Positions 7,265 through 18,010 of a stretch of DNA of 64,000 nucleotides are shown piece by piece (the first letter of the stretch is position 1; each line of letters starts with the position of its first letter). Origin of the DNA: Planctomycetota bacterium. GTDB taxonomy: Bacteria; Planctomycetota; UBA8108; SXIK01. The notes under the pieces were generated by a model, which worked only from the letters and a program-made list of their open reading frames with translations, had not been told where the DNA came from and made no database searches. The position numbers and the translations under genes were made by a program. The stretch covers positions 7,136,001 to 7,200,000 of the forward strand of contig CBDCXR010000004.1 of assembly GCA_965223845.1 (NCBI GenBank), read 5' to 3'.

Positions 7265-8539
7265 ATGACTGAGCTTTCCCGACGACAGTTCCTCGTTCAG
7301 TCGGCCGGCGTTGCCGGCGTCGGACTCGGACTCTCGAATCGGAGTGCCGCCGATGCGGGGCCGATTCCGCGCGGGACGCTGCGGCTCGGCTTTATCGGCC
7401 TCGGCGACCGCGGGCGCTATCTGCTCGAGTCGGTTCTCCGAATGGAGTCCGTACCCGCGACGGGCGCGATCGGAGACGACGCGCCGCGGATCGAGATCAA
7501 CGCTCTCTGTGATGTGAATCCGCAGCGACTCCGCGGGGCGCTCGACGCGGTCGATGCCGTCGAGGCGGGAAGCGTACGACCGGGACCCGCCCCGTCGCGG
7601 CGCCTTCGGCAGCGTCCGACGCCGTCGTCGAGCTCGTCCCGTCCGCTGAGCGCCGCCGGCGCCCGCGTCCGGGGCTACACGAACTACCGCGCGCTCCTCG
7701 ACGCTCCCGATGTCGATGCCGTCGTCATCGCGACGCCGGTGTATCTTCACGCGGAGCAGGCCGTGACCTCCCTCTACGCGGGAAAGCACGTCTACCTCGA
7801 AAAGCCGCTCGCGGCGACGATCGGTGATTGTCGTGCGATTCGACAGGCCGCGCTCGACGCCGCGGCTCGAGGTGTCGTCTTCCAGGTTGGACTCCAGCGC
7901 CGCTACAACCCGCGCTACCGCGCGAGCATCGACCATCTCGCGTCGGGCGCGCTCGGCCGGCCGCTCTTCGTGCGCGCGCAGTGGCACGCCGCGGGGAACT
8001 CACCGAAGGACAAGCCTTGGCTCTACCGGCGGGAGCGCTCGGGCGACATCGTCGTCGAGCAGGCGACGCACCAGTTCGATCTGTTCAATTGGGCGCTCGG
8101 CGGCGTACCCGCGCGGGTCTCCGGATTCGGCGGCACGCACCGCGATCAAAGCGCCCTGCCCGGTCGCGACACGATGGATCACTACGGACTCGTGCTCGAG
8201 TATCCCGGCGGTGCGAAGGTCAGCTTGACGCATCTCACTTACGCGATTCCCGATCGCAGGTTTTCGGGGATCTACGAGATCGTGTTCGCCGAGCGCGGGG
8301 GTGTCGACCTCGGTGCGGCGCGGGTCTGGCCGCGCGACGGCAAGGCGCGCGCGCTCGACGCGGCGAGTGGGAGCGACACTCCACTTGCCATCGGTGGATT
8401 CGCGGCGGCCGCGCTCGCGCAGGTGCGGCCGGTGGCGGACATCGACGTCGGCTACCGAGCGAACGTCGTCGCTCTGATGTGCCGGCGAGCGCTCGAGACC
8501 GGGCGGCCGGTGACGTGGGGCGAGGTCGAGACGGCTTGA
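7265..8539 (+). CDS. Gfo/Idh/MocA family oxidoreductase with twin-arginine signal
   Basis: SRRQFL TAT motif, GFIGLGDRG, DAVVIATP, GKHVYLEKP, FQVGLQRRY. Confidence 0.9.
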   Translation: MTELSRRQFLVQSAGVAGVGLGLSNRSAADAGPIPRGTLRLGFIGLGDRGRYLLESVLRMESVPATGAIGDDAPRIEINALCDVNPQRLRGALDAVDAVEAGSVRPGPAPSRRLRQRPTPSSSSSRPLSAAGARVRGYTNYRALLDAPDVDAVVIATPVYLHAEQAVTSLYAGKHVYLEKPLAATIGDCRAIRQAALDAAARGVVFQVGLQRRYNPRYRASIDHLASGALGRPLFVRAQWHAAGNSPKDKPWLYRRERSGDIVVEQATHQFDLFNWALGGVPARVSGFGGTHRDQSALPGRDTMDHYGLVLEYPGGAKVSLTHLTYAIPDRRFSGIYEIVFAERGGVDLGAARVWPRDGKARALDAASGSDTPLAIGGFAAAALAQVRPVADIDVGYRANVVALMCRRALETGRPVTWGEVETA

Positions 8540-10341
8540 CCTCGCTCGACGACCGCGCGGCCGGCACGGTTCATGGCGATAGCGGGAGCTCCCGCCTGCC
8601 CGTAGCGAGCGGGCTCGCGACGATCGCGCTTGCGCTCTTCCTCCCCGCGTTGCTCTACGATCTCAATCTCCCCGACGAGCCGCGCGTTGCGCACATGGCG
8701 CACGAGATGGCGCGGACGGGCGAGTGGACGCTCGGACGCGTCAACGGCGAGCTCTTTCTCCACACTCCGCCGCTCGCGTATTGGGCGATCGCCGGCGTCG
8801 AGAAAGTCGTCGGGCACGGGCCGGAGCGCGCACTCCGCGTCGTCTCGGTCGCCGCGGCCATCGGGACGATCCTCGTCACGTTCGCTCTCGTCGCGCGCTA
8901 CGCGAGCCTCCTCGCCGGGCTCGTCAGCGCCTGCGTGCTCGCGTCGACGTTTCAGTTCGCGGACGTCGCGCACCGCCTTACCGTCGACATGACGCTCACG
9001 CTCTTTACGCACGCCGCGCTCGCCGGCCTCATGGTTCTTCGCCTCGAGTCGCATCCCCGCTGGTGGTGGGGGCTCGCGCTCGGAGCGGCGGGCGCCGGAG
9101 CGTTTCTGACGAAAGGAATCGTCGGACCAGCGTTTCTCGGAGTGTTTTTCGCCGCCCTGGTCGCGCTCGACTATCGAGTCTGGTGGAGTCGGCGGGCGCT
9201 CGTTCTCGCGATCGCCGCGGCGACCGCGGTCGCGCTCTCCGTGCCGTGGCTACTCGCGCTCCACCGCCTCGATCCGGCGTATCCAAAGGCCGTGCTTTTC
9301 GGTCACGTCATCGAGCGGGCCGTCGGCGCCGCGCACCACAATCCGAGCAACTGGCAATTCACGCACCGATTCTTGCTTCACGTGATGCCTTGGACACCCA
9401 TCGCGCTGTTCGCGATCGGATCGACCCTCCGCGGCGCGTGGGGACGCCGGCGAGCTCCGCGCGATCAGGCGCCGCGGCCGGATGCCCGCGCGACGCTCGC
9501 GACGCTCGCGGCGCTGTTCGCGACGCTCTCGTTTCTCTTGCTCCTCGTCTCGCGCGGGAAGAGGAACCTCTACTTCCTTCCGGCAGTTCCGGCGCTCGCG
9601 ACGTGCTCGGCACTCTGGATCGACCGCCATCTCGACGCGCGATGGATGCGGCGCGCACTGGGTGTTGTACTCGCCGGCAGCGTACTCGCCGGTGTCGTCG
9701 GTGCCGTACTGACCTTTTTCACCGAAGCGGGACGCGATTCCTGGCTCGTTCCGCTCGCGCTCATCGCCATTTTCTATTGGCCGCTCCGTTCGTGGCGCTC
9801 GAGGCGGCGCCGTCCCCACGCGACGGTGGAACGCCCGGAGGGATTCGTCGTCGCATCGCTTCTCGCGCTCGTGCTCGCCGTCGCCGCGTGGGGATCCGCT
9901 TACCACATTCTCCGGAACGACCGCTACACCGCGACGCCGTTCGGACGCGAGGTGGTGAAGCGGGTCGCGACCGCCGGCGGAGGGGTTGTCGGATTTCAGC
10001 TGTACGAGCGGGAGCAGGCCGCGGTAGCGTGGGCGCTCGGCGAGACCTTTCCCCACACGGACGTCGAGAGCGAGCTCGCGACATGGCTCGCAGACGAGAC
10101 GGTGGCGAATGCGGCGGCGCGAGTGATCGTCGCCGACGCGGAGGCGTACTCTTCGCTGCGCACGGGGGTCCTGAGCGATTGGCGAATCGATCTCGAAGCG
10201 AAGCTGCGCCGTCGCCGCATCTTGATCTTGGTCCATCGGGATTCGACCTCGAGCGCGCGCGGAGCGACGGATCCCCATCGAACGGAGGAGTCCGGTGACG
10301 CGGAGGATGAGAATCACGAAGGTCTACACCCGAGTCGGTGA
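8536..10341 (+). CDS. ArnT/PMT-like (GT39/GT83) polytopic membrane glycosyltransferase
   Basis: PDEPR-A-MA-EM, PPLAYW, LTKGIVG, many TM helices, K-x-x-Y-LP. TTG at 8536 overlaps the upstream TGA (translational coupling); the longer 7828 start is not credible. Confidence 0.85.
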   Translation: MTSLDDRAAGTVHGDSGSSRLPVASGLATIALALFLPALLYDLNLPDEPRVAHMAHEMARTGEWTLGRVNGELFLHTPPLAYWAIAGVEKVVGHGPERALRVVSVAAAIGTILVTFALVARYASLLAGLVSACVLASTFQFADVAHRLTVDMTLTLFTHAALAGLMVLRLESHPRWWWGLALGAAGAGAFLTKGIVGPAFLGVFFAALVALDYRVWWSRRALVLAIAAATAVALSVPWLLALHRLDPAYPKAVLFGHVIERAVGAAHHNPSNWQFTHRFLLHVMPWTPIALFAIGSTLRGAWGRRRAPRDQAPRPDARATLATLAALFATLSFLLLLVSRGKRNLYFLPAVPALATCSALWIDRHLDARWMRRALGVVLAGSVLAGVVGAVLTFFTEAGRDSWLVPLALIAIFYWPLRSWRSRRRRPHATVERPEGFVVASLLALVLAVAAWGSAYHILRNDRYTATPFGREVVKRVATAGGGVVGFQLYEREQAAVAWALGETFPHTDVESELATWLADETVANAAARVIVADAEAYSSLRTGVLSDWRIDLEAKLRRRRILILVHRDSTSSARGATDPHRTEESGDAEDENHEGLHPSR

Positions 10342-10867
10342 CGGCGGGGAGACTCGGCTCGGAGGCGGCCAGAGCGTCCGGAAGGACTCGGCCCGCATCG
10401 CGGCGTTCGGGACGGTCGACGAGCTCAACAGTCAGCTCGGCGTCGCCGTCGCGGTCGGACTCGTTCCCGTTCACGAAGCCGTCGTCCGTCGAGTGCAGCA
10501 CGAGCTCTTCCGCGCGGGCTCTCAGCTGTGCATGCTCGACGAGGACCGAAAGAAGTACTCGGTGCCCGAGATCGAGCAGCGGCACATCGACGGGCTCGAG
10601 AAGGACATCGACCGGCTCCTCGAGCCTCTTCCTCCGCTCGAGGAGTTCATCCTCCCGGGCGGAACGGCCGGAGCGGCGCAACTTCACGTCGCGCGGACGG
10701 TGTGCCGTCGCGCGGAGCGGCTCGTCGTCGCTCTCGCGCGCGAGGAGGAAGTCGGGAGCGCCGTCATCGCCTATCTCAATCGATTGTCGGACCTCCTTTT
10801 CGTCGTCGCGCGAGCGGAGAACGCGGAGAACGGTCGCGAGGATCCCCAGTGGGATCGTGAGGTGTGA
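10307..10867 (+). CDS. ATP:cob(I)alamin adenosyltransferase, PduO type
   Basis: KVYTRVGDGGET, GTVDELNS, FILPGG, LHVARTVCRRAER, YLNRLSD. GGAGG RBS before ATG 10307. Confidence 0.93.
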   Translation: MRITKVYTRVGDGGETRLGGGQSVRKDSARIAAFGTVDELNSQLGVAVAVGLVPVHEAVVRRVQHELFRAGSQLCMLDEDRKKYSVPEIEQRHIDGLEKDIDRLLEPLPPLEEFILPGGTAGAAQLHVARTVCRRAERLVVALAREEEVGSAVIAYLNRLSDLLFVVARAENAENGREDPQWDREV

Positions 10868-10948
10868 TAGCGGGGTCCGATCGCCGTAGTGCCGGTGATC
10901 GTTCGCGACCGGGAACTGCGCTTTTCAAGTGAACTGGGAACGATATCC

Positions 10949-12223
10949 ATGAGTGGTCGAAGCGGAAGACGAGCGGGACGCATCACGCTCGCGATCGGTC
11001 TCACCTTGATGCTTGCCGTCGTCTGTGTGTGGGTTCTCTACGGGCGCGACATTTCACCGCCCGACGAGAGCGACTTTCAGACCTCCGATGGACTCGTTGC
11101 GGACGCGACCAACGCATTCTTCGATCTCGATTTCGAGCCGGATGCGATCCGCGGAACCGAGCGCGACGAGGACATCGAGGACGACTGGGAGCTCTTCGAC
11201 TACGTCGAAGCGTACGACCTCCGGTTTCCACTCCGGCAGGCTGACGACGAGGACGCCGAACTCGGTGCCTTCGACCCGAGCGTGGAGTGGGACGCGGAAG
11301 TGGTCCGCGGCATCGTCGACGAGCGGGCGACGTATCTGGACACTCTCGAGCGAGCGCTCGAAAAGAAGGAGTTCGTCGTTCGCCTCGACGATCCGAGCGA
11401 TCAATACTCCCTCGTCGAGTGGCGCGATCTGGCTTTTCTGCTTCGACTCCGCATTCGGCTGCACCTCGTTCGGAACGACGTGAAGGCGGCAGCCGACGAC
11501 GCCCTCCTTCTCGCCCGGTTTGGACACCGAATCGCGTACTCCGGGCCCTATCTCTGGCTCCTCGTGGGGATCGGCATCGAGTCGCAGGGTTTCGAGGACA
11601 TCTGGCGCATCCTCGCGCTCGCCGACACTCCGAAAGAGCAATGCGAGGAGATCCGAGATCGCCTTCGATCGTTCGCCTTCGATCGCGAGCGGCTGCGAGA
11701 GATTTGGGCCAAGGAGTATCAGTGGGCGACGCTTCTCATCGAGAGCGAACTCGGCGACGCGTGGTTTTACCATCCCAATCGGACGCGGGCGCGACTCCTC
11801 CGGGCGTATCGGATTCAGCGCGATTGGATGCAGAGTCCCCACTGGACTCCGCCGAGTGGAGAGGGAACGATCGCGGAACTGCGGACAACGGGTGTCGCCA
11901 ACTGGCTCAACTGGGCGGGCGAGCAGGCGTGCGCACTTCTTCTCACTGAGCCGTCGCCCGGACTCTGGACCCGCGATTTCGATCTTCGCGCAACGCGGCT
12001 GGTCGCCGCGCTGCGCCTCTACGATCTCGAGCACGATGGGCTTCCCGAAACTCTCGACGCGCTCGTTCCGAAGTTCATCGAATCCGTGCCGCGCGATCCG
12101 TTCGCCGCTACCGGAGGCCTCCGCTACTCACGCGAGGAGCGGGAGATCTCCTCGGTCGGCGCAGACTTGGATCTCGACCACTTCCGGTCGAAGCCGTTCG
12201 TCCGCTCGCTTCCGGAGTGGTGA
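10949..12223 (+). CDS. Hypothetical membrane-anchored helical protein with GspG/pseudopilin-like C-terminus
   Basis: N-terminal TM helix; C-terminal AALRLYDLEHDGLPETLDALVPKF...PRDPF...LRY...SVGAD. Confidence 0.7.
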   Translation: MSGRSGRRAGRITLAIGLTLMLAVVCVWVLYGRDISPPDESDFQTSDGLVADATNAFFDLDFEPDAIRGTERDEDIEDDWELFDYVEAYDLRFPLRQADDEDAELGAFDPSVEWDAEVVRGIVDERATYLDTLERALEKKEFVVRLDDPSDQYSLVEWRDLAFLLRLRIRLHLVRNDVKAAADDALLLARFGHRIAYSGPYLWLLVGIGIESQGFEDIWRILALADTPKEQCEEIRDRLRSFAFDRERLREIWAKEYQWATLLIESELGDAWFYHPNRTRARLLRAYRIQRDWMQSPHWTPPSGEGTIAELRTTGVANWLNWAGEQACALLLTEPSPGLWTRDFDLRATRLVAALRLYDLEHDGLPETLDALVPKFIESVPRDPFAATGGLRYSREEREISSVGADLDLDHFRSKPFVRSLPEW

Positions 12224-12498
12224 GCGGCGCGCCTCGAGGCGTCCACCGGTGCCGGCGAAACGAGCCGCCCGCCAGCCATCCGTCCACCAAATAGACGGCC
12301 CACCGAATCGAAGATGGAACCGTCCGTTCGGCGTTTGTGGCGGCGCTCGCGATAAATTTCGAACCTGGATCCCTGCGCTCGCCGCCTCCCGGTACACCGG
12401 CACTCTACTTGCACCTCGCTTCGATGCGCTCACCTCCCCGGCGAGCGCAGGCGTTTCGTACCGACACGGTGACACGGCCCGACGGAAGCGAGCTCTCC

Positions 12499-12813
12499 TT
12501 GGAACCCACAAACCCCGATTCCGGCCACGCGTCTCGCTCGTCCGAGACCGAATCTGAGCAGCCACAGCCGCTCGATGCGTCCTCCGGCGACGATCATGCG
12601 GAAGAGTCGACGCTGGTGAGCGAATCCGAGACCACCGCACGCGAGTCCGACGTGATCTCGATTCCGACGGTCGTTGCCGCAGAAGCGGTCGCTGACGTCG
12701 ACGTCCCCGCGGCGCACTTCGTTCTCGATTACGACCGCGAGGTCGCCTTCCTGGAGAGCGAGGGGCGGTGGAGCTCCGACATGGTTCCGAAGGGATTTCG
12801 GCGACGTCGCTGA
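12499..12813 (+). CDS. Small acidic, probably disordered hypothetical protein (start uncertain: 12337, 12469 or 12499)
   Basis: About one fifth D/E plus many S/T; ordered-looking C-terminus HFVLDYDREVAFLESEGRW; same strand and directly upstream of the actin-like gene. Confidence 0.5.
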   Translation: MEPTNPDSGHASRSSETESEQPQPLDASSGDDHAEESTLVSESETTARESDVISIPTVVAAEAVADVDVPAAHFVLDYDREVAFLESEGRWSSDMVPKGFRRRR

Positions 12814-13026
12814 AGGCCGGCATCGAGTCAACGTCGGGGCAGCATCGGAGAGTCACACGTTCCCGCGCGGACCAAACGTCGACTCTCTTCGCTCCCGGAT
12901 TCCCCGCCGGGGATGGCGAGATCCGCGCAAACGTCGAATGAACGTCGAGTTTTCGGCCGGTCGCCCCGCTCGGGCATGGCCGAACTCGAGGCTTGAGTCC
13001 GAGGCGTGCACGACGAGGAGTAAGAA

Positions 13027-14094
13027 GTGAGCTTCGACGGACTGCCCGCCTTGGGCGGACGAGCCGCACGAGTCGGCCTCGATCTCGGCTCCGCCGCGAC
13101 GAAAGTCGTCCTCCCGCCTGGACCCGGAGAGACGGGACCTCCTCGGCCGCTCGTCGTGCCGTCTCGAATCGCCTACGCGCGGCCAGGAGCATTGCCGTGT
13201 CCGTTTTCCTGCGTGGGCACACGGGCGCTCGAGCGCCGGGATCACTTGGATCTCCGGCACCCGTTCGCGTGCGCGGACGACGAGGATCTCGGGTCGACTC
13301 TCCGCGACTTTGGTCGGCACCTGCGCGGGAGCTATCAGCGCCGAAAGGACGAGCTCCCATGGGGTGTCGTCGCTTGCCCCGCCAGCGCCACTCAAGCGGC
13401 ACGTGATCTGAGGCGCGTCGTCGGTGGCGAGATCTTCGATCGGATCGCGCTCGTCGACGACGTCTTCCTCGCCGCGGTCGCGATCGACTCGCGGGAAGTC
13501 TCGCAGCACAGCGTGCTCATCGACTTCGGCGACGAATCCGTGCGTGCGGCGATCTTTCACGGCTCGGCGCCGGAAGCGGGCGAGCGGGTGTCGGTCGCGT
13601 TCGACGGCGCGGCGTGGAACGACGCCTTTCGCGATCGCCTCCGGCTCCGCTATCCGGAGCTCCACTTCACGGATCCCACCCTGACGTCCCTCCGCGAGTC
13701 GCTCGCGTTTCTCTCGCCCGCCGCGCGGCGAACGTCGCTGGAGCTCCGCTATCAGGGCGGAGTGATGGCGGTCGACGTCACGCGGACGATCGCGGAGGCG
13801 AGTGCCGTTGCGCTGCGGCCGGTGCTTCGCGCGGCGCGAGACGCCCTGGCGCTCTGCCCGTCAGATGAAACCGAGGTTTTCCAAGAAAACATCGTTCTCT
13901 ACGGCGGCGGAGCGGCCTTGCCGGGGCTGCGCGCTCGGCTCGAGGAGGAGCTCCTCAACGAAGGTTACGATTTCGCGCGTGTCCGCACGGTCGGGAATCC
14001 ACGTACCCTCGTCGCTGAAGGTGCGTACCGCTGGGCATCGCGACTCGACGACGCCGACTGGAGCATCCCGCTCTTCTCGTTCGCGAGCGACTGA
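13027..14094 (+). CDS. Actin-like protein, MamK-like branch of the MreB/MamK family, with degenerate ATPase motifs
   Basis: Phosphate-1 GLDLGS, adenosine motif NIVLYGGGAALPGL, connect-2 VAEGA. Segments VGTRALERRDHLDLRHP, RYPEL, VDVT and GAYRWASRLDDADW parallel MamK as I recall it. GAGGAG RBS before GTG. Confidence 0.8.
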   Translation: MSFDGLPALGGRAARVGLDLGSAATKVVLPPGPGETGPPRPLVVPSRIAYARPGALPCPFSCVGTRALERRDHLDLRHPFACADDEDLGSTLRDFGRHLRGSYQRRKDELPWGVVACPASATQAARDLRRVVGGEIFDRIALVDDVFLAAVAIDSREVSQHSVLIDFGDESVRAAIFHGSAPEAGERVSVAFDGAAWNDAFRDRLRLRYPELHFTDPTLTSLRESLAFLSPAARRTSLELRYQGGVMAVDVTRTIAEASAVALRPVLRAARDALALCPSDETEVFQENIVLYGGGAALPGLRARLEEELLNEGYDFARVRTVGNPRTLVAEGAYRWASRLDDADWSIPLFSFASD

Positions 14095-17527: not shown

Positions 17528-18010
17528 TCAGACCTGGGGATCCGCTTCGGTCGGCTGCGTCTCCGGGCTCGTCTGCATGCGGTACTCGGCGACCTTCCAC
17601 CCGGACGGACCGAGGTTGAAGCGCTCGCCCTGGAGAACGATCGAGAGCCGATCCTCGGCTCCGTCCATCGCCATCCCGTTTTGCTTCATGCGAGAGATGC
17701 ATTTCGCTCGGAGGGGAATCTCAGCCATCGGACCCTCGGTCTCGAGGATGCTCGCGACGATGGACTCGAGATCGGCCATCCACTTGGGGTCGCTCGGCTC
17801 CGACTTGCGTCCCGAACGCTTCGACTTCACGGCGGCCGACATCTCGGGAGTGAATCGCCTTCCGTGAAGACCGGCGAGGCCCGCTTGGACGCGATCGAGC
17901 TCGCGCGTCAGCTCTTTCTGGCGTTGACGAACTTCGGCGAGCTCCTTGCGGAGTCGATCCTTCTGCGCCTTCAAGTCGCCGATGATGTCGGTGATCGAAT
18001 TCTCTTCCAC
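17528..18010 (-). CDS. Hypothetical protein: N-terminal coiled coil, basic linker, putative winged-helix-like C-domain
   Basis: Heptad pattern IIGDLKAQKDRLRKELAEVRQRQKELTRELDRVQAGL; KSKRSGRK linker; ILETEGPM...F...GW ending. AGGAG RBS before GTG. Confidence 0.7.
   Translation of the reverse strand: MEENSITDIIGDLKAQKDRLRKELAEVRQRQKELTRELDRVQAGLAGLHGRRFTPEMSAAVKSKRSGRKSEPSDPKWMADLESIVASILETEGPMAEIPLRAKCISRMKQNGMAMDGAEDRLSIVLQGERFNLGPSGWKVAEYRMQTSPETQPTEADPQV

Follow-up and report, generated by a model that had tools for sequence, protein, structure and literature searches.

What kind of actin is encoded next to a small acidic gene in a planctomycete, and do the two form a system of their own? 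The question is raised by a 64,000-nucleotide stretch of a Planctomycetota genome (GenBank assembly GCA_965223845.1, contig CBDCXR010000004.1, positions 7,136,001 to 7,200,000 of the forward strand), hereafter the window, in which a gene for a 355-residue actin-fold protein follows a short open reading frame (ORF). A first-pass annotation, made from the letters of the DNA, had described the pair as an orphan MamK-like actin with degenerate ATPase motifs, preceded by an acidic ORF in the position of mamJ. Based on profile searches, a phylogenetic tree, comparison of homologous loci and structure prediction, we consider it very probable that the actin defines a separate subfamily related to BeeR and has a partner gene dedicated to it, and our results suggest that the locus is a two-gene cytoskeletal module present in a few lineages of one planctomycete order. 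This conserved two-part module appears to be undescribed, since a search of open-access and bioRxiv literature, which did not cover supplements, found no description of the subfamily or of its partner.

The features of the module are as follows (window coordinates; HMM, hidden Markov model; pLDDT, predicted local distance difference test).

12424..12813, + strand: small partner gene with an acidic, disordered N-terminal part and a conserved C-terminal motif; public call of 129 aa (P0155), ATG at 12424
12709..12801, + strand: conserved C-terminal motif of the partner, about 31 residues (AAHFVLDYDREVAFLESEGRWSSDMVPKGFR), predicted actin-binding element, delimited by alignment and HMM
13015..13020, + strand: Shine-Dalgarno-like GAGGAG, 6 nt 5' of the actin GTG, from sequence reading only
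13027..14094, + strand: actin-fold gene of an unnamed BeeR-related subfamily, 355 aa, GTG start
13075..13092, + strand: phosphate-1 motif G17-S22 (GLDLGS), conserved in the family
13456..13461, + strand: connect-1 Asp144-Asp145, with Asp145 at the place of the MamK catalytic Glu143
13522..13545, + strand: rebuilt phosphate-2 loop D166-R173 (DFGDESVR), from alignment to 8r2n and 5ljw and from family counts
13657..13767, + strand: segment of subdomain IIB, residues 211-247, predicted docking surface of the partner in the complex model
13903..13926, + strand: adenosine motif G293-G300 (GGGAALPG), conserved in the family
14059..14082, + strand: family-specific C-terminal tail W345-F352 (WSIPLFSF), pLDDT 89 for residues 341-350

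Family placement and nucleotide site of the actin

The frame from 13027 to 14094 is intact, an earlier start is blocked by an in-frame TAA at 13021-13023, and the public protein collection holds an identical 355-residue entry (P0001, 100% identity). The protein displays the phosphate-1, phosphate-2 and adenosine elements of the actin/ASKHA fold, phosphate-2 being degenerate, and the 355-residue actin-fold ORF with the motifs initially listed was borne out by translation and by HMMER alignment to BeeR (Protein Data Bank [PDB] entry 8r2n) and MamK (5ljw). In these alignments, phosphate-1 of the window actin reads VGLDLGS and the adenosine motif reads NIVLYGGGAALPG. Connect-1 is LVDDVF, compared with LIPEPF in BeeR and VVSEPF in MamK, and phosphate-2 is IDFGDESVR, compared with IDIGGGTSD in BeeR and VDIGAGTTD in MamK; MamK D161 aligns with Asp166, which is retained. 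AlphaFold2 (AF2) modeled the protein from a 41-row alignment with a pLDDT of 92.8 and a predicted template modeling score (pTM) of 0.90. We also observed, within the actin ORF, a 16-nt inverted repeat (13479-13494 and 13692-13707, 94% complementary), the second arm of which doubles as a terminator-like hairpin with a T-rich run after it; this arrangement is probably due to chance.

Several independent comparisons rank BeeR first among the known relatives of the window actin. The sole Pfam match is MreB_Mbl (PF06723), at 32.7 bits against a cut-off of 27, in agreement with an actin fold. Among NCBIfam models, the BeeR equivalog (NF053558) gave 130.7 bits against a cut-off of 530 and MamK (NF040964) gave 109.2 bits against 400, both below threshold, and the MreB models gave 15 to 20 bits against cut-offs of 293 to 515 (15 bits for TIGR00904 and PRK13927, cut-offs 293-366). 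The same order was obtained when the PDB was searched by sequence (BeeR 8r2n, E = 7e-24; MamK, 1.8e-17; MreB, 1e-3) and when it was searched by fold with Foldseek (BeeR 8r2n filament subunit, E = 4e-28 and TM 0.78; MamK, 6e-24; MreB, 1.6e-20). The protein is indeed closer to MamK than to MreB, as first claimed (109 versus 15 bits), and closer still to BeeR (131 bits). Homologs are few: a HMMER search of 1.84 billion cluster representatives returned only 182 proteins at E <=1e-3 and 21 at E <=1e-30, and a word-indexed search returned two relatives, with 51% and 43% identity.

The phylogenetic tree was built from 59 hand-chosen rows, consisting of 50 full-length representatives (300-480 aa, selected from 153 proteins) and 9 sequences taken from loci; fragments and most weak matches were left out, and the genome's own MreB served as the outgroup. 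The tree was computed by an IQ-TREE quick search, with branch support from the Shimodaira-Hasegawa-like approximate likelihood ratio test (SH-aLRT) only. For ten rows, the assignment to a group was verified with NCBIfam models: a true BeeR representative (P0035) reached 562 bits on the BeeR model and P0053 and P0068 reached 508 and 425 bits on the MamK model. The 26 rows that carry the signature of the window actin form one clade (SH-aLRT 97), and this family, the BeeR-like rows and a small "odd" group together form another (SH-aLRT 99), from which the MamK-like rows are separate (SH-aLRT 89). Within the BeeR/MamK clade, the window actin thus falls on the BeeR side, in a small subfamily that is monophyletic, and is not MamK proper, MreB or Hsp70. 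The initial designation as "MamK-type" holds insofar as the protein is a nonmagnetosome actin of the MamK/BeeR type, and fails insofar as it groups with the BeeR side of the tree and scores under the cut-offs of both families. Placement inside an MreB or an EutJ/Hsp70-like clade, named at the outset as the result that would overturn the proposal, was not what the HMM searches and the tree gave; the protein belongs to the BeeR/MamK clade. Another small actin-fold clade on the BeeR side (P0062, P0070, P0094 and P0130; SH-aLRT 100) was seen branching near the family. In its members, connect-1 is "VPGLTLA", without Glu, phosphate-2 reads, for example, "GIGHASIQ", and the C terminus has "HW[DE]VL".

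We counted the nucleotide-site residues in the 26 family rows and compared them with those of 11 BeeR-like and 13 MamK-like rows. The family has kept Asp19 (24/26) and Gly21 (26/26) in phosphate-1, Asp166 and Gly168 (25/26 each) in phosphate-2, and, in the adenosine motif, Gly293 (26/26), Gly294 (25/26) and Gly295 (21/26). The remainder of phosphate-2 is different. Gly at position 170, present in 10/11 BeeR-like and 12/13 MamK-like rows, is found in 1/26 family rows; Thr at position 171 (9/11 and 12/13, respectively) is found in none, the family having Ser in 15 rows and Ala in 8; and position 173, an Asp in 11/11 BeeR-like and 12/13 MamK-like rows, is an Arg in 25/26 family rows. A loop D-x-G-x-x-[S/A]-x-R thus replaces D-I-G-[A/G]-G-T-T-D. 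Position 145, where MamK has its catalytic Glu143, is more heterogeneous: Glu is present in 11 of the 26 rows, Asp in 9, Pro in 3, Gly in 2 and His in 1, compared with Glu in 10/11 BeeR-like and 13/13 MamK-like rows. Glu is found in 11 of the 12 rows of clade B, and clades A (that of the window actin) and C have Asp, Pro, Gly or His, such that Glu has been lost in two of the three clades. The family also ends in a characteristic tail, W-x-I-P-L-F-x-F (Trp345 in 26/26 rows, Pro348 in 23/26, Phe350 in 21/26 and Phe or Tyr352 in 21/26), whereas BeeR-like and MamK-like proteins mostly end at, or shortly past, the equivalent of Trp345.

These counts indicate that what holds the Mg-nucleotide in the site is conserved and that the elements acting on the gamma-phosphate have been rebuilt. 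The degenerate ATPase site is thus real, with a rebuilt phosphate-2 loop in 25 to 26 of the 26 family rows. The changes are common to homologs at 30 to 51% identity, and the suspicion that they might be private to this genome, a sign of decay, does not apply to the phosphate-2 changes; Asp169 occurs in the window protein only, and Glu170 occurs also in two other family rows. Since the mutation of Glu143 or of Asp161 in MamK yields static filaments (E143A and D161A; PMC5059902), the hydrolysis activity of the window actin would, to judge from its residues, be altered and probably slow. The residue equivalent to A278 of MamK was considered as an argument against polymerization, A278D being the nonpolymerizing mutant present in the 5ljw structure. 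This candidate argument was dropped because MamK proteins that pass the family cut-off also carry Asp or Glu at this position.

The partner gene and its predicted docking site

The partner ORF lies in a frame that extends from 12295 to 12810, in which GTG 12337 and TTG 12499 are alternatives to the start at ATG 12424. The acidic ORF of the initial description is real and lies directly upstream of the actin gene: the 72 residues that precede the C-terminal motif in the ATG-12424 form contain 17 D+E versus 2 K+R, and the N-terminal tail measures 72 to 97 residues, depending on the start. Searches of Pfam and NCBIfam, at E up to 0.1 or 0.01, gave no match for the partner, and public annotations of such proteins are "hypothetical". 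The reference to a "mamJ position" is apt in that an acidic gene precedes the actin gene, and the likeness to mamJ seen in these searches is one of position.

A small ORF on the same strand, ending just before the actin gene, is present in 12 of the 12 family loci that could be judged, namely the window, five other genomes, two paralogue loci and four independent metagenome contigs. A narrow 7-row family alignment was used in the search for related loci; four more loci are duplicates, and five metagenome loci (L048-L052) have too little or no upstream sequence. The acidic ORF is consequently conserved beside homologs of the actin, as the first-pass annotation required of its own proposal. The N-terminal parts of the partners range from 25 to 115 residues and are divergent in sequence, mostly acidic and Pro-rich; of the 10 orthologous loci measured, 5 have N-terminal parts of 25 to 29 residues and another has one of 115 residues. 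The last ~31 residues, by comparison, follow the consensus VFVL-x-YD-x-E-x-x-x-LV-x-EG-x-x-x-PG-x-x-PSGLK. Over a 28-codon core, the ratio of nonsynonymous to synonymous substitution rates (dN/dS) is <1 in 43 of the 43 computable pairs, with a median of 0.46, a value to be read in light of the short stretch and of dS being near saturation. An HMM of the motif, run against the six-frame translation of the whole genome, gave one match (E = 7e-15), the next being at 0.78; its other matches are only the loci from which it was built, and it found nothing at the loci of the BeeR-like or MamK-like paralogues. A scan for promoters and terminators retrieved 0 promoter-like and 4 terminator-like sequences (2.2 expected), none of the latter between the partner and actin genes.

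With a family profile threshold of E <=1e-92, the actin was detected in 6 of the 21 genomes that represent species of the window's order: 4/4 in the window's own taxonomic family (window's genome included) and 1/3 and 1/14 in two others. Two of the six genomes have two copies, the second being a paralogue. Of 401 genomes sampled evenly across the phylum, three have the actin, all within the window's own taxonomic family, and none was found outside the order; many of these genomes are incomplete, and absence means not found in the genomes searched.

Modeled alone by AF2, the partner shows no secondary structure over residues 1-70 (pLDDT 57-66), and its motif is better defined (pLDDT 80-87), with a helix at residues 78-87. 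We then modeled a complex of the actin and partner residues 61-104 by co-folding, from alignments of 41 and 12 rows, respectively, and obtained an interface score (ipSAE, interaction prediction score from aligned errors) of 0.81, 0.80 and 0.81 in three runs, versus 0.01 for the best of three controls. Of 80 solved complexes, 58 attain a level of 0.81, as do 2 of 110 mismatched pairs; this calibration is rough here given the use of custom alignments. The three runs share >=90% of their contacts, and the pLDDT of the partner is 76. Binding is thus predicted in the co-folding experiment that had been recommended with the acidic ORF, and we regard it as likely, on the strength of these models, that the partner binds the actin.

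The models support subdomain IIB as the site of docking. The predicted interface involves partner residues 66-102: the strand 72-79 is predicted to pair with actin strand 236-242 in the IIB hairpin, residues 81-85 to pack on actin 213-218, and the tail 95-102 to reach actin 299-303 and 71-73. Several residues on the predicted surface are conserved specifically in the family (Leu212 in 23/26 rows, Leu226 in 20/26, Pro231 in 25/26 and Arg234 in 20/26), and the same positions are variable or different in BeeR-like rows. The cross-strand contacts of BeeR filaments involve R242, N246, I277 and L284, together with N380 and L385 near the C terminus (PMC11929497). The first four correspond to positions 207, 211, 242 and 249 of the window actin, through a gap-free alignment block with an offset of 35, and fall in or beside the predicted partner site.

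Proposed mechanism and alternative explanations

We propose that the locus encodes a BeeR-derived two-gene cytoskeletal module with an IIB-docking partner, an explanation to which, taken as a whole, we give an even chance. The actin would have its origin inside the BeeR-like branch of the BeeR/MamK clade. It would still hold the Mg-nucleotide through the D-x-G of phosphate-1, the Asp and Gly of phosphate-2 and the GGG of the adenosine motif, having lost the Gly-Thr of phosphate-2, exchanged the closing Asp for Arg and, in the window's clade, also replaced the catalytic Glu by Asp. Such a protein may bind nucleotide, assemble like BeeR and MamK and hydrolyze slowly or not at all, which would result in long-lived rather than treadmilling polymers. 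From its sequence relationships, we rate the chance that the window actin polymerizes as slightly better than even.

The ~31-residue motif of the partner would dock on IIB by adding a strand to the hairpin, with the short helix packed beside it, and would leave the disordered, mostly acidic N-terminal tail projecting outward. Because the docking surface coincides with the positions of the BeeR strand-to-strand contacts, the partner might set or limit lateral association (strand number or bundling) or might hold subunits back from assembly, with no specific link to a cargo. This role in lateral assembly or sequestration, derived from the complex model, is a tentative suggestion that we consider less probable than its opposite. 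More speculative still is the possibility that the BeeR-derived actin gave up fast hydrolysis and that the partner, sitting on the cross-strand surface of IIB, both controls assembly and supplies a "repellent" tail in trans. This idea, which we judge unlikely, draws on a loose parallel, in that the N-terminal extension of BeeR prevents bundling and the window family is without such an extension.

Several points weigh against this proposal. In the tree, which is a quick search supported by SH-aLRT alone, the forks that nest the family next to planctomycete BeeR-like rows score 86 and 94, under the level starred in the tree, so that its exact sister group is tentative. Positions 144 and/or 145 carry an acidic residue in 26/26 rows, clade B has Glu, and hydrolysis may persist. 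Since the glycines of the adenosine motif, phosphate-1, and Asp and Gly of phosphate-2 are conserved as well, "hydrolysis-dead", as the filament was first called, goes too far. Co-transcription of the two genes is less sure in the window, where they are 214 nt apart, than in four relatives' loci, where the distance is ~2 to 30 nt with the chosen starts. The complex model rests on custom alignments of 12 and 41 rows. As a set, the interface positions are not significantly conserved in the family (mean entropy 1.94 versus 2.07; 1094 of 5000 random sets were as low), and they are among the more variable ones in BeeR-like rows. Finally, the mapping to the lateral surface of BeeR was made by sequence alignment, and it does not tell the lateral from the longitudinal face.

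Among the alternatives, the one that survives best is that the actin is a pseudo-ATPase that does not polymerize by itself, and which as a stable heterodimer with its partner would cap, nucleate or co-polymerize with the filaments of a BeeR-like paralogue, in the manner of Arp-type or MamK-like accessory actins. Its assessment depends on the other actins of the genome. This 7.93-Mb genome contains four actin-fold cytoskeletal genes, encoding MreB, a BeeR-like protein, a MamK-like protein and the window actin. The canonical mreB (414.6 bits on Pfam MreB_Mbl), with mreC adjoining, is located on the contig at ~2.197 Mb, a distance of ~5 Mb from the window, and the two other genes are as follows.

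G000:C4:500479-501570 (L039:8479-9570), + strand: BeeR-like paralogue, 364 aa; 386.6 bits on the BeeR model, cut-off 530
G000:C4:2154411-2155523 (L040:8412-9524), - strand: MamK-like paralogue, 371 aa; 384 bits on the MamK model, cut-off 400

The word "orphan" is therefore accurate for the surroundings, which are devoid of mam and mre genes, but not for the genome, with its mreB-mreC and two paralogues of the BeeR/MamK type. The C terminus of the MamK-like paralogue, "..YW.." followed by an acidic tail, resembles the saltatorellin type, and a 556-aa ORF without a Pfam match precedes this gene on the same strand. The BeeR-like paralogue has canonical motifs throughout (PEPFLAA, DIGGGTTD, GGGS and a QWQVPM end), a point in favor of the pseudo-ATPase explanation. 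This explanation also gains from the family-wide rebuilding of phosphate-2, with Asp169-Glu170 in the loop of the window copy, from the branching of the family within the BeeR-like grade and from the presence of a match of the BeeR-like tier (268-291 bits) in all 6 family-bearing genomes. However, proteins of this tier are common across the class, being present in 16 of 41 relatives (17 with one 222-bit match), and such co-occurrence among kin says little. Moreover, the genes of the window actin and of the BeeR-like paralogue are 6.6 Mb apart, and paralogous sub-clades of the family each have their own partner gene, suggesting self-sufficient modules. On balance, we find the pseudo-ATPase explanation improbable.

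A second alternative follows the MamK/MamJ example and has the acidic upstream protein link the filament to an organelle or to another cargo. The succession of an acidic gene and an actin gene mirrors the mamJ-mamK order, the partner is predicted to bind the actin via its C terminus and to leave the acidic tail free, and the tail is long in the window (72-97 residues, with 17 D+E in the 72-residue form). Comparison across loci tells against it, as the tail is conserved neither in length (25-29 residues in 5/10 loci, 115 in another) nor in sequence, and it is without predicted structure, hence without a conserved cargo-binding element. Neither MamI, MamP nor MamQ was found above cut-off in the genome, and the partner has no family model. 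The best MamP match in the whole genome has 24 bits (cut-off 300) and the best MamQ match 75 bits (cut-off 250), both generic and weak. MamI had no match, although its control matched in no genome, which makes this a weak blank, and other mam genes were not searched. The term "nonmagnetosome" thus stands on the absence of MamI, MamP and MamQ above cut-off, the silent MamI control included, and the genome shows no magnetosome cluster of the kind expected around a MamK by this search.

Nor do the neighboring genes suggest a cargo, as none of a cargo type is conserved and only the PduO-type and PMT-type genes are syntenic, in close relatives alone. The neighbors concerned are listed here.

7828-10341, + strand: PMT-type glycosyltransferase (PMT_2, 57.7 bits)
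10295-10867, + strand: PduO-type cob(I)alamin adenosyltransferase (Pfam)
10889-12223, + strand: 444-aa ORF without a Pfam or NCBIfam match, between the PduO and partner genes in the window genome only
17528-18010, - strand: 160-aa ORF with weak coiled-coil-type Pfam matches, below cut-off

In a tblastn search of the window neighbors against the relatives' loci, the glycosyltransferase, the PduO gene and the actin alone were syntenic, and the two ORFs downstream of the actin were not conserved. The order PMT-type glycosyltransferase, PduO, partner, actin was seen with the glycosyltransferase in L032, L033 and L035 and with PduO also in L046 and L047; distant family members (G009 and G014) do not have the glycosyltransferase-PduO order, and no functional link is obvious. 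The 444-aa ORF is an insertion of a multicopy, lineage-specific family, with 4 copies here and 16 in one relative, that is unlinked to the actin elsewhere. A relative of the 160-aa ORF lies shortly downstream of the actin in L035 (11190-11600; 27% identity, E = 5e-16). The proposal that the acidic ORF is a cargo adaptor finds no support, given an N-terminal part that is often short, unconserved and predicted to be disordered, and a conservation restricted to the predicted actin-binding motif; we consider a MamJ-like positioning role, in its general form, quite unlikely.

Two further explanations can be set aside almost entirely. The view that the actin is an ordinary or decaying gene (a divergent MreB, an EutJ/Hsp70-like protein or a pseudogenizing paralogue, with a chance ORF upstream) could invoke the lone Pfam match to MreB_Mbl (32.7 bits versus 27) and the phosphate-2 loop of the window, the most deviant of the family with an Asp169 seen in that row only, but it is contradicted by the 15 to 20 bits obtained on MreB models with cut-offs of 293 to 515, by the canonical mreB-mreC elsewhere in the genome, by the intact frame, the confident AF2 model and the signature residues kept across 26 rows, and by an upstream ORF that is in frame in 12/12 loci with dN/dS <1. 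Equally remote is a DNA-segregation actin of the ParM/Alp type with a ParR-like centromere adaptor on a mobile element, a notion encouraged by the pairing of an actin-like gene with that of a small protein predicted to bind the actin through a short C-terminal element, but at odds with a chromosomal locus of shared synteny (PMT-type glycosyltransferase, PduO, partner, actin), with the absence of iterated centromere-like repeats near the genes (scattered 12-30-nt matches only), with a partner that matches no DNA-binding family, with a tree that places the actin in the BeeR/MamK clade and with a predicted site on IIB, as ParR binds the IA/IIA cleft of ParM.

The BeeR-derived module with an IIB-docking partner thus remains our preferred explanation, and it would matter in several respects. 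There are few kinds of bacterial actin, and every new architecture has been informative on how the fold builds polymers. A BeeR-sister-type family with a naturally rebuilt site offers a test of the role of the phosphate-2 Gly-Thr-Asp in this clade, and the co-evolving partner, through its compact predicted motif, gives biochemical work and the search for the polymer in cells an easy point of entry. The presence of four actin-fold cytoskeletal genes in a single planctomycete genome is relevant to the phylum's unusual cell biology. A partner that regulates assembly would be, among bacteria, a rare example of a dedicated actin-binding regulator, and a partner-controlled polymer would constitute an independently evolved bacterial counterpart of the eukaryotic actin-binding regulators, with pairs duplicated in some genomes.

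Relation to known systems

The closest known system is BeeR, a protein described in 2025 whose function is unknown and which polymerizes with ATP (PMC11929497), its filament being a three-stranded tube. BeeR is the best match of the window actin by HMM, by PDB sequence search and by fold, the tree puts both on one side (SH-aLRT 99), and the two proteins have in common a Trp near the C terminus and a "(C/S)xSD" helix. The differences concern the site, the termini and the gene context. BeeR has canonical residues for binding and hydrolyzing ATP (PMC11929497), whereas the window family has lost the phosphate-2 Gly-Thr-x-Asp, with DFGDESVR instead of DIGGGTSD in the window actin and Asp instead of the connect-1 Glu. 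A disordered N-terminal extension of 30-50 residues is a hallmark of BeeR and keeps its filaments from bundling (PMC11929497); in the window actin, strand 1 starts from residue 15, and family members have ~14-25 residues before VGLDLG. Conversely, the family has an IPLFxF tail and a dedicated upstream partner gene that was not found at BeeR-like loci. BeeR occurs in Verrucomicrobiota and the window family in Planctomycetota.

MamK belongs to the same wider clade (109 bits by HMM) and is the second-best fold match, and the pair MamJ-MamK shares with the window an acidic protein gene just upstream of the actin gene. The window actin nevertheless scores under the MamK cut-off of 400, which true MamK proteins exceed (425-508 bits), and trees apart from the MamK-like rows. 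Of the MamK catalytic pair, Asp161 is kept as Asp166 and Glu143 is Asp145. The conserved part of the partner is a 31-residue C-terminal motif, in contrast to the repeats of MamJ, and no family model matched it. The MamK-like protein of Magnetospirillum magneticum AMB-1 is reported to have a substituted catalytic Glu and still to interact with MamK. AMB-1 possesses mamK-like and mamJ-like homologs (PMC5059902), and MamK-like resembles the window actin as a natural paralogue coexisting with a canonical actin-like protein. It is, however, a close paralogue of MamK in a magnetosome islet, in contrast to the window family, whose phosphate-2 loop is rebuilt and which forms a clade that is deep and separate.

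Saltatorellin, from Saltatorellota, forms filaments when expressed in Escherichia coli and Magnetospirillum gryphiswaldense (bioRxiv 10.1101/817700). It is comparable to the window actin as a nonmagnetosome actin of the MamK type from the planctomycete radiation, and differs from it in that the printed reverse primer encodes an end in ...YWEQLK, of the MamK-like-tier type, versus WxIPLFxF in the family. The preprint also reports two actin homologs per genome (10.1101/817700), versus four in the window genome. A preprint on predatory planctomycetes was considered and rejected, its subject being a lokiactin homolog and not the window family.

The partner, for its part, has no sequence relation to the short motifs employed in the FtsA-FtsZ, ParM-ParR and actin-WH2 pairs. 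The docking of short, conserved terminal motifs of otherwise disordered or variable partners on actin folds is nonetheless a recurrent theme, exemplified by the C-terminal peptide of FtsZ on FtsA, by ParR on ParM and by thymosin or WH2 on actin. On FtsA, the site of the FtsZ peptide is subdomain 2B, which is also the subdomain predicted for the partner on the window actin, where the predicted mode is the addition of a strand to the IIB hairpin, completed by a short helix.

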